From Escherichia coli (GTDB lineage Bacteria > Pseudomonadota > Gammaproteobacteria > Enterobacterales > Enterobacteriaceae), in assembly GCF_013315695.1 (NCBI RefSeq), contig NZ_CP054353.1: a stretch of 64,000 bases of DNA. One strand, written 5' to 3'. Positions 1,417 through 4,063 of this stretch are shown piece after piece (within the stretch, counting starts at the first letter, position 1; each line of letters starts with the position of its first letter). The position numbers were made by a program, and so were the translations under genes. Under the pieces are notes generated by a model that had not been told where the DNA came from, made no database searches, and was given only the letters and a program-made list of their open reading frames with translations.

Positions 1417-2601
1417 TTACTTCATTTTCACCTTTGCGGTGACCAATAACGCCGTCAGCAACATCAATGTGCCGGACAACATCAACGGCGAAGTCAGACC
1501 AATATTATCCAGCGCATAACCGCCGATTGCCGCGCCACAGGTATTAGCAAGCTGAATAACCGCCACCTGAATAGACCCGGCTTTTTCTGCCTGATCGGCC
1601 AGTGAGCGGGTGATCCACGTTGACCAGCCGACAGGAACCAATGCAAAAGTTAGCCCCCAGATAATCGCCACGCCGGTAGCAACGATTTTATCGCTTCCCC
1701 ACAACGTCAGCACCAACGCACTCACAGCCAGTATTAACGGCGCGCCTGCTAAGGCCAGTTTTACCGAACGTTTAAGAATGAACGACGAAAGCGACGTACC
1801 AATAAAGCTGGCGATACCAAAACTCAACAGCACCAGCGTTAAGCCATCCACGCCGAATCCCGCCAGGTTCATATACACCGGGCGAATATACGTGAAGAAA
1901 GCAAACTGCCCGGCGAAAGACATGAAGATGGCGATCATCCCTGCCATCACACCCGGACGTTGTAATAAGCGGAAAGTATTTTGTTTCTGATGCGAGGGTT
2001 CGCCTGGCAGCGAAGGCAATGATTTGATAATCCAGAAAATACACAGCACGCCCATCACCGCCGCCGCATTAAAGACATTGCGCCAACCGATAAGCTCGCC
2101 TAAAAAACTGCCCAACGGTGCGGCAATCACCAGCGCAATAGAAACCGCGCCGAAGATCACCGACAGCGCCTTCGGCACCGTACGCGGCGGTACCAGACGC
2201 ATGGTCAGCGACGCCGACATCGCCCAGAACCCACCCAGCGCCAGCCCCAGACAGGCACGACCGATTAAAAGCAAACTGAATGAGTTAGCAAAGGAAACCA
2301 GCAAGCAGGAGAGCGTCAGCAAAACGGCAAACAAAATAACAACATAGCGGCGGTCAGTGGCCTGAATTGTCTGGGTAATAAACAAACTGGCAAACATTGC
2401 CACAAAGGCGGTCACGGTCACCGATTGCCCGGCAACCCCTTCCGAAATGCCTAAATCCTGGGCCATTGGCGTCAACAAACTGACGGGCAAAAACTCAACG
2501 ATAATCAGACAGGCGACGCAAAACGCCACCGAGAAAACGGCTGACCAGTTCGGTCGGGTGATGGCATCCGCGCCGCGGTTTTCGGCAATAAATTCACTCA
2601 T
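1417..2601 (-). CDS. nepI: Purine ribonucleoside efflux pump NepI (MFS transporter)
   Basis: Translation [27 protein letters not shown]... recognised as NepI; 12-TM MFS-like hydrophobic profile. Start placed at internal ATG 2601 rather than ORF-track start 2649. Confidence 0.88.
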
Positions 2602-2879
2602 GGTGTTACCCGTGGCATGTTTCAGGGGAAAAGCCGACCACTTTAACATTGAAATGTGTGACGCATTTAACGTTTTTGCAACTTTTACGGTGTTGTGGGA
2701 AAAGTTCGAGGCTACTCGAAGAAATAAAAATCATAGGGCAAGGTGATATGCATTTTCGCAATGGGGTTGGGAATAAGGGATAAAGTATTGCACTTGGTGA
2801 TATACTTTAATAACAGGATCTCAACGATATACGCGTGTTTAAAACCAAATAGTTTGCAAGGGAAGCCAGGTCTCATGCA

Positions 2880-3188
2880 ATGACAGATGAAGAGTTGTGC
2901 CGGGCCATTTTAGAAACGGAACAAGGTAAAGCTGATGTACTTGGTGGTGGCGTTTTTAAAAAGCGCCTTCACCGAAATCGTGAGCGTGCAATTATTCTGG
3001 CAAAAGGGGGAAGCAATTGGTTTTACACGTTTTTATATGCAAAACAGGATATGTCGAACATCAATAGTCAGGAACTGGCTGGGTTTCGTGAACTTGCAAA
3101 GCATTATGCCTTCCTGACGAAAGCCCAACTAACAGCAATGATTAACACTAAAGAACTGACAGAGATCTGCTATGACTGCAAAAACTAA
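2880..3188 (+). CDS. RelE/ParE-superfamily (HigB-like) toxin candidate, 102 aa
   Basis: Small basic protein with LGGGVFKKRLHRNRERAIILAKGGSNWFYTF motif resembling RelE/ParE-type addiction toxins; 17-nt overlap with the downstream HTH gene; toxin-first gene order as in higBA. Confidence 0.5.
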   Translation: MTDEELCRAILETEQGKADVLGGGVFKKRLHRNRERAIILAKGGSNWFYTFLYAKQDMSNINSQELAGFRELAKHYAFLTKAQLTAMINTKELTEICYDCKN

Positions 3189-3495
3189 ATTTAAAAGTCC
3201 TGCATTTGAGGCTATTCACAGCGCAGCGGCTGGATTGTCCAGCGTCGATGCTATTTCTGCCGAAACGATGCGTACTTTTGACAAAGCCTGCCTGACCAGC
3301 GTGCAAGACTTACAACCTGTTGAGATAAAAGCACTGCGGGAAAAATTAAAAGTGAGTCAGCCCGTCTTCGCTCACTATCTCAATACCAGCGTTTCAACTG
3401 TACAAAAATGGGAAAGTGGCGCTAAACGCCCCAATGGCATTTCATTAAAACTGCTCAGCATTGTGCAAAAACACGGGCTGGAGGTGCTGCTGTAA
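3172..3495 (+). CDS. XRE-family helix-turn-helix antitoxin candidate (HigA-like), 107 aa
   Basis: C-terminal HTH_XRE-like segment (LREKLKVSQPVFAHYLNTSVSTVQKWESGAKRPNGISLKLL); overlaps upstream toxin-like ORF. Confidence 0.55.
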   Translation: MTAKTKFKSPAFEAIHSAAAGLSSVDAISAETMRTFDKACLTSVQDLQPVEIKALREKLKVSQPVFAHYLNTSVSTVQKWESGAKRPNGISLKLLSIVQKHGLEVLL

Positions 3496-3529
3496 ATAGA
3501 ACGTAGATAATGCGTTCACCTACTGTCAG

Positions 3530-3605
3530 TTCCAATACCGGATGCGGCGTGAACGCCTAATCCACCCTACAGGTCAGGCGCGGTCTGTAGGCTGATAAGA
3601 CGAAG
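3530..3605. repeat. REP (repetitive extragenic palindromic) element cluster
   Basis: CCGGATGCGGCGTGAACGCC-type palindromic unit between the antitoxin-like gene and yicN. Confidence 0.55.
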
Positions 3606-3610
3606 CGGTT

Positions 3611-4063
3611 TTAATGCAGCCAGTGAACGCCCTCGGCAGGCTGAAAGAACGCGTTATAGCGCATCTGAAAAGCATTAATATCCTGCATTTCAGGTTCGGT
3701 TTCGCGCAGAAAACCCAGCGCCAGCCTGACCTGAGCATCAGTAATCGGCGCGGCAAGGCGGGCTTTTTGTAAAATCCGATGCCATTGCAGCATGTTCTGT
3801 TCGCTACCATCGACAATGACAATTTGCCAGATGAGCAACACCTGCGCGGCGTTTTGCAGGTGCGACTCATCCGGGCGATGCAAATAACGTAAAAATTCGT
3901 CACCGGCTGACTTTCCCATTTGATCGACCATCGACTCCACGGGTACGACATCGATGTTCAGCCGATCGCTGAGACGGCGAATCGCTTTTCTGGCCCCGGA
4001 TGTCAGCACCCGAAAACCAATCACAAACACTACCGCCAGCGTGGCGAGCATTATCCAGATCAT
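3611..4063 (-). CDS. yicN: DUF1198 inner-membrane protein YicN
   Basis: Translation MIWIMLATLAVVFVIGFRVLTSGARKAIRRL...; GGAGAA RBS before ATG at 4063 (ORF track start 4090 rejected). Confidence 0.8.
   Translation of the reverse strand: MIWIMLATLAVVFVIGFRVLTSGARKAIRRLSDRLNIDVVPVESMVDQMGKSAGDEFLRYLHRPDESHLQNAAQVLLIWQIVIVDGSEQNMLQWHRILQKARLAAPITDAQVRLALGFLRETEPEMQDINAFQMRYNAFFQPAEGVHWLH

Follow-up and report, generated by a model that had tools for sequence, protein, structure and literature searches.

A higBA2-like toxin-antitoxin operon with a nonsense-truncated toxin gene at the nepI-yicN site of Escherichia coli

Between nepI and yicN, the stretch of Escherichia coli DNA analysed here (64,000 nucleotides of contig NZ_CP054353.1, assembly GCF_013315695.1; hereafter the window) carries two small overlapping genes. 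They probably make up a chromosomal operon of long standing, a type II toxin-antitoxin (TA) system of the HigB2/HigA2 kind with a toxin that is broken in this allele. The pair itself is already known, as its family, its Salmonella orthologue and its RefSeq annotation all exist. What the present analysis adds is only a correction at the level of the allele and a series of decaying alleles at a fixed ancestral site.

The residual toxin gene, ORF1, encodes 102 aa at 2880-3188 and is followed by the antitoxin gene, ORF2, which encodes 107 aa at 3172-3495; both lie on the plus strand and were taken from a list of open reading frames and their translations. As a preliminary description made from the sequence alone had reported, the two frames overlap by 17 nt (3172-3188), and the motifs LGGGVFKKRL and AKGGSNWFYTF that it quoted are both found in ORF1. 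The divergent left neighbour is nepI, encoding a purine ribonucleoside efflux pump (1417..2601, minus strand), and the right neighbour is yicN (DUF1198; 3611..4063, minus strand), both as placed by the PGAP annotation of the identical record. The same RefSeq/PGAP annotation labels the pair as a RelE/ParE family type II toxin and an HTH protein, and presents ORF1 as a normal CDS with no pseudogene flag. Alignment to the K-12-type locus L003 set the junctions of an 838-bp variable segment at 2696..3533. The REP cluster described earlier as following the pair was also recovered, as a REP/BIME cluster at about 3503..3600 recognized by inverted repeats, a repeated 20-mer and the alignment to K-12. 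Of its three REP-like units, a degenerate first one falls within the variable segment, and the others are common to K-12. The 20-mer recurs identically at 58983-59002, and the region matched the REP-derived Rfam model naRNA4/CssrE below threshold (30.3 bits; gathering score 59.5). A hairpin, TTCGAG-GCTA-CTCGAA, lies at about 2716-2731 in the intergenic region between nepI and the toxin gene and is partly kept in Salmonella and Klebsiella. On the far side of nepI, positions 1-1215 of the window (minus strand) cover the 3' end of a roughly 7-kb gene for the inverse autotransporter adhesin IatC, as seen in the identical RefSeq record. The IatC gene sits directly downstream of nepI, a place taken by yicS (and, where shown, nlpA) in O157, ST131 and K-12-type genomes.

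The preliminary description read the first frame as RelE/ParE-like from its motifs, and a profile search bore this out: ORF1 matches Pfam family PF06296 ('RelE toxin of RelE/RelB') with E=9.9e-31 and 106.9 bits. This family includes HigB2 of Vibrio cholerae and has a toxin-first gene order (PMC11980606), and VcHigB2, searched with a sequence identical to PDB 5JA9, matched the same model at E=3.3e-8. Comparison of a predicted model with known structures gave HigB2, of the RelE/BECR fold, as the closest fold for the toxin. The activity of VcHigB2 involves Arg51, Arg64, Tyr82 and Lys84, together with Lys49 (PMC5416850; PMC10098735). From a motif alignment and the ToxP paper, toxin residues K44, R46, R53, Y70 and K72 correspond to VcHigB2 K49, R51, R64, Y82 and K84, respectively. 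Across 15 diverse pairs, including Coxiella ToxP, the residues K44, R46, R53 and K72 are invariant and position 70 is Tyr or Phe. Searches by sequence alone were much less informative. No match was found in the PDB sequences by phmmer with the full-length toxin or with a 26-sequence profile, and hhalign of the toxin family against VcHigB2 gave a non-significant E=0.06 in a doubtful register. The link to HigB2 therefore rests on shared Pfam membership and on the fold. No NCBIfam model matched the toxin.

The HigB/HigA assignment of the preliminary description thus needs to be qualified. The toxin-first order and the membership in PF06296, the family of VcHigB2, agree with it, but the HMMs for Rts1-type HigB (PF05015/PF09907) were unmatched by ORF1, for which PF06296 was the sole family reported. 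A classical RelBE system, with a PF05016 toxin and a ribbon-helix-helix antitoxin encoded first, is ruled out by the toxin-first order and the HTH antitoxin. In the 15-pair alignment the PF06296 toxins fall into two subtypes by their β2-β3 loop: one with a long basic loop (Vibrio HigB2, Coxiella ToxP, Synechococcus and Roseomonas) and one with a short loop (enterobacteria, Sinorhizobium and Methylosinus).

The earlier treatment of the first frame as a whole toxin could not be upheld, since ORF1 is a nonsense-truncated allele that lacks the first 17 residues, including the invariant F4, K5 and F9. The in-frame sequence 5' of ORF1 reads V-F-K-T-K-stop-F-A-R-E-A-R-S-H-A-M, so the frame runs upstream past a TAG at 2850-2852, and the 102 codons of ORF1 are the 3' part of a longer gene. 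Alignment of the alleles and their translations showed that this TAG (2850..2852, plus strand) is a premature stop in place of the TGG codon for Trp8 of an RxFKTxWF motif. O157:H7, ST131 and strain e1-39 have TGG at this position, and their toxin genes encode 117-119 aa beginning MRVFKTKWF. The ancestral start codon of the 119-aa toxin was located at 2829..2831 (plus strand) from the allele alignment and the starts of homologues. Both the window and O157 have ATA at this codon; ST131-type genomes and all other genera have ATG. ORF1 corresponds to residues 18-119 of the HigB2-like toxin and begins at Met18, an I18M variant (ATA to ATG). Its PF06296 match spans only positions 19-120 of the 120 in the model and misses the N-terminal part with RxFKTxxF, and the complete domain, including the N-terminal β1 and RxFKTxxF, is present in the ST131, O157 and other-genus alleles.

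The missing segment is among the most conserved parts of the protein. Residues R2, F4, K5, T6, W8 and F9 are invariant in 26/26 enterobacterial-type toxin homologues, and F4, K5 and F9 remain invariant across the 15 diverse toxins. An AlphaFold model of the full-length toxin (pLDDT 82.5) has residues 2-6 as strand β1 and residues 7-15 as helix α1, both in the predicted core; the 102-aa ORF is without β1 and α1 and keeps K44, R46, R53, Y70 and K72. With ATA in place of ATG at codon 1, the usable start moves to GTG 2835, which is 16 nt away from the Shine-Dalgarno sequence. The window toxin is most likely inactive, as Trp8 is an amber codon and a restart at Met18 drops β1 and α1; on this sequence evidence, loss of toxicity is the most likely property of the allele. 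We consider it probable, with some reserve, that the protein is either inactive or unstable and that its antitoxin has been orphaned.

The module was found in 1,716 of 5,426 complete E. coli genomes, always at the same site, always on the chromosome and always in single copy; K-12-type genomes lack it, as does BL21(DE3). The preliminary description had doubted that K-12 has such a pair at this position and had suggested a comparison of this intergenic site across E. coli genomes, which supports its doubt. Haplotypes at codons 1, 8 and 18 were counted in the complete E. coli genomes as exact 80-mers over 2820-2899. The combination ATG/TGG/ATA, the ST131 type, was found in 1,043 genomes, and ATA/TGG/ATA, the O157 type, in 467. 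The window allele, ATA/TAG/ATG, was found in 137 genomes, and ATA/TGG/ATG in 24, among them SMS-3-5 and e1-39. The TAG is thus a real allele of a lineage and no sequencing error, because 137 complete genomes have the same 80-mer. The 24 genomes that combine TGG with ATG indicate that Met18 is older than the nonsense mutation, and they rule out ATG 2880 as a compensation for it. At least 1,000 public contigs encode exactly this 102-aa protein, which they name 'type II toxin-antitoxin system RelE/ParE family toxin'. Elsewhere in E. coli there are other decayed toxin alleles: frameshifts and C-terminal truncations are found in the protein database, and some alleles have lost the start codon. Four E. 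coli alleles of the antitoxin were compared and share at least 98% identity. Three database entries deserve separate mention. In E. coli HS-02 the toxin is frameshifted, the antitoxin is not annotated and the sequence resembles a homopolymer assembly error; adeQ is annotated as frameshifted in O157 F7386; and the 90%-identity protein cluster of the antitoxin also holds toxins of 117-119 aa, apparently an artefact of clustering genes that overlap.

The suggestion that the pair is an accessory module does not hold in the sense of a recent island, as the same site is kept in Citrobacter, Salmonella and Klebsiella. The arrangement of nepI, a 119-aa toxin, a 107-aa antitoxin and a 17-nt overlap also occurs in Citrobacter koseri, Salmonella enterica and Klebsiella oxytoca, and yicN (DUF1198) then follows in C. 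koseri and K. oxytoca. In Dickeya and Yersinia the pair is present in other gene contexts and nepI is absent. The overlap of 17 nt is identical in 6/6 enterobacterial loci examined outside E. coli (five genera), and all toxins of the other genera examined are full length at 119 aa. Identity to the E. coli proteins is 66-71% for the toxin and 77-84% for the antitoxin across the five genera, 81-88% for NepI in the three syntenic genera, and 70-82% for YicN in C. koseri and K. oxytoca. For the antitoxin across genera, pN is 0.08-0.15 and synonymous sites are saturated (pS 0.70-0.81). Purifying selection acts on both genes, with a between-genus dN/dS of 0.03-0.15 for the pairs for which it could be computed; the branch of the E. 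coli toxin exceeds those of the other genera in length. Judged by these comparisons, the module is ancestral at the nepI-yicN site, and the K-12 state is a loss, because the pair occupies the same site in Citrobacter, Salmonella and Klebsiella.

In K-12-type genomes, 39 nt (locus L003 2547-2585) replace window positions 2696-3533. These 39 nt hold a 19-mer, GAAACGGAACAGGGCAAAG, that matches the toxin codons at 2913-2931 in 17/19 positions; among 500 shuffles, the best only equalled its score. The match may be a scar left when the toxin gene was deleted. Recent acquisition of the pair from a plasmid or phage was rejected, as the plasmid and phage collections searched gave no enterobacterial plasmid copy and no genuine phage copy. 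The orthologous Salmonella genes have appeared in the literature: STM3777/78 are among the type II TA loci of Salmonella (PMC4070546), and STM3777 is listed, with over-expression tested, in a paper since retracted (PMC3868539), whose results we do not rely on. More recently, nepI and STM3777 were named side by side as sharing an upstream site (bioRxiv 10.64898/2026.01.27.702048). Our literature search found no experiment on the E. coli proteins of the pair, and searches for nepI or yicN together with toxin-antitoxin, or for guessed O157 and CFT073 locus tags, returned nothing relevant.

Comparison of the upstream regions of seven loci from six genera revealed only two conserved blocks, a palindrome with the hexamer TATACT and the ribosome-binding block ACAGGATG. 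The palindrome, ATTGCAC-TTG-GTGATAT at 2787..2803, lies within an inverted repeat (2781-2793 / 2797-2809) and is a candidate operator. Its cross-genus consensus is a perfect ATAGCAC-N3-GTGCTAT, from which the window copy departs by one mismatch per half-site. TATACT, a -10-like hexamer read directly from the sequence and conserved in the alignment (2801..2806, plus strand), overlaps the right half of the palindrome. The block ACAGGATG contains the Shine-Dalgarno sequence of the toxin gene, AGGA (2815..2818, plus strand), which is conserved in 7/7 upstream regions; the distance from it is 10 nt to codon 1 (2829) and 16 nt to GTG 2835. The palindrome is kept in Dickeya and Yersinia although the flanks differ. 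A scan of 2600-3650 for consensus promoters and terminators called no sites, so the candidate promoter rests on cross-genus conservation only. The conserved palindrome over the -10-like box is likely the operator. At the Salmonella locus, a CCWGG forms the centre of the palindrome (L010 4956-4976), and the region between nepI and STM3777 has no other. Unmethylated CCWGG sites have been reported upstream of genes that include nepI and STM3777 (bioRxiv 10.64898/2026.01.27.702048), and in Salmonella this lack of methylation could reflect occupancy by the repressor.

The antitoxin is whole, with an N-terminal segment of about 45 residues and a C-terminal XRE-type HTH. The latter had been noticed at the end of the second frame and is recognized by Pfam as HTH_3 at residues 52-96 (E=1.2e-7); MqsA_antitoxin also matched (E=1e-5). 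The best PDB match is V. cholerae HigA-2 (E=8.3e-10 over residues 46-102), and the NCBIfam models for MqsA, NadS and other HTH proteins matched, all below their cut-offs. When toxin, linker and antitoxin were modelled as one fused chain with AlphaFold, antitoxin residues from about 10 to 40 had pLDDT values above 90 and the confidence for the toxin rose. These are confidence scores only, and for the N-terminus of the antitoxin they fit with a segment that may fold on binding.

The intact module most likely acts as VcHigBA2 and Coxiella ToxP/AntitoxP do: the 119-aa toxin, which has a RelE-like fold, would bind the ribosome and cut mRNA under translation. The 107-aa antitoxin would neutralize it through the N-terminal segment, and its C-terminal HTH would repress the operon at the palindrome overlapping the -10 box. 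The orphan antitoxin of the window would then remain as a repressor, and it might also neutralize incoming toxins of the PF06296/HigB2-like family.

An alternative that we hold to be unlikely is that the window still encodes a working TA pair, in which ribosomes reinitiate at ATG 2880 after the amber codon and make an active 102-aa toxin that is kept in check by the antitoxin. The retention of all five putative active-site residues and the strong PF06296 match would be expected of such a protein, an AGG lies 9 nt before ATG 2880 so that some truncated protein could be made, and the Met18 codon was in place before the nonsense mutation arose. Persistence of the allele in 137 complete genomes and the annotation by PGAP without a pseudogene flag point the same way. 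However, the 17 lost residues take with them six that are invariant in close homologues, an edge strand and the first helix, and the orthologues examined in other genera are all 119 aa; the further decayed alleles in E. coli suggest relaxed selection on the toxin in this species. A pair whose main role is to regulate the divergent nepI, with the HTH protein as regulator and the RelE-like protein as co-factor, seems to us extremely improbable. Divergent linkage to nepI is retained in four genera, the palindrome lies in the shared intergenic region, both genes have been under long-term purifying selection, and nepI and STM3777 are both among the genes with unmethylated CCWGG upstream (bioRxiv 10.64898/2026.01.27.702048). 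Yet Dickeya and Yersinia have the pair and the same palindrome just 5' of the toxin gene with no nepI; because the palindrome travels with the pair where nepI is absent, the operator belongs to the pair. Moreover, plasmids of Alphaproteobacteria and Coxiella also carry the pair, nepI is expressed in K-12, where the module is missing, and about 185 nt separate the palindrome from the start of nepI.

The preliminary description had also raised a defence function. If intact alleles formed an anti-phage abortive-infection module, the window would hold a disabled copy, and we give this very little credence. A role in defence has been proposed for toxins of the RelE/ParE superfamily (PMC11980606), and the antitoxin matches the phage family phrog_2104 at E=1e-26 and, weakly, the RmrA-type HTH models of PADLOC. 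Against this, the toxin has no match in PADLOC 2.0 and the antitoxin only weak generic HTH matches there, the pair sits at a stable syntenic site between housekeeping genes and in no defence island, and no homologue was found in any true phage record, the single 'phage' match being a Salmonella contig of 515 kb. Searched against PADLOC and PHROGs together, the toxin returned no defence system and only a weak match to a PHROG of unknown function. The plasmid collection held no enterobacterial copy, and its lone E. coli match, NZ_CP141089.1 in PLSDB, is a mislabelled chromosome of 4.9 Mb. A further proposal, which we regard as very unlikely, starts from the vertical retention of the pair, divergent from nepI and under purifying selection, in Escherichia, Citrobacter, Salmonella and Klebsiella: the pair may have been domesticated, so that the HigA2-like repressor or the TA complex controls nepI and the toxin has been dismantled stepwise with the antitoxin kept as the useful part. 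If this were true, the steps would be the change of the start from ATG to ATA, the amber mutation at codon 8 and full deletion as in K-12.

The reading preferred here, an old HigB2/HigA2-type operon with a broken toxin, has consequences that reach little beyond annotation. For the window allele, a toxin pseudogene beside an orphaned antitoxin is a better description than the normal 102-aa toxin of PGAP, and inventories of TA systems based on annotation will over-count functional modules. The nepI-yicN site offers a natural TA decay series within one species, for which the intact orthologues of nearby genera serve as references. The series runs from the 1,043 intact copies through the 467 that lost the ATG start and the 137 with the nonsense codon to complete deletion in K-12-type genomes, and it could serve studies of the erosion of chromosomal TA systems.

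Among known systems, the best structural match is VcHigB2/HigA2 (VCA0468/VCA0469; PDB 5JAA, 5MJE and 8A0X), of the same PF06296 family. As in the E. coli pair, the toxin comes first, the antitoxin consists of an N-terminal segment and a C-terminal HTH, and equivalents of the active-site residues are kept. In contrast, identity between the toxins is only about 14-22%, with no significant match by sequence alone; the β2-β3 loop is short in the E. coli family but long and basic in VcHigB2, and the E. coli family carries about 25 extra C-terminal residues that form a helix and a strand ending in ELxEIC. The E. coli pair also occupies a fixed chromosomal site and is no superintegron cassette, and its toxin is truncated in the window.

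The ToxP/AntitoxP pair of the Coxiella burnetii plasmid QpH1 (CBUA0028/CBUA0027) has a full-length toxin of the PF06296 type, with the RxFKT N-terminus and a C-terminal ELxEV strand, that is 32-35% identical to the E. coli toxin. ToxP/AntitoxP is an experimentally established TA pair: ToxP is toxic and blocks translation, and AntitoxP binds ToxP as well as the promoter (PMC10098735). The Coxiella pair lies on a plasmid and belongs to the long-loop subtype; the E. coli pair, known from sequence, lies on the chromosome and belongs to the short-loop subtype.

The orthologue in Salmonella Typhimurium is STM3777/STM3778, which holds the same position divergent from nepI and has the same lengths (119/107 aa) and the same 17-nt overlap, with 69% identity for the toxin and 79% for the antitoxin. 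Its toxin is intact, in contrast to that of the window, and its operator half-sites are nearer to the consensus; downstream, Salmonella has a PTS/aldolase cluster in the place of yicN. More distant likenesses extend to HigB-HigA of Rts1/Proteus and HigBA of E. coli K-12 (PF05015/PF09907), which have in common with the present pair a toxin-first operon, a RelE-superfamily fold and an HTH antitoxin. With K-12 RelBE (PF05016, ribbon-helix-helix antitoxin), the pair shares a RelE-like fold and probably an Arg/Lys active site for ribosome-dependent cleavage of mRNA.
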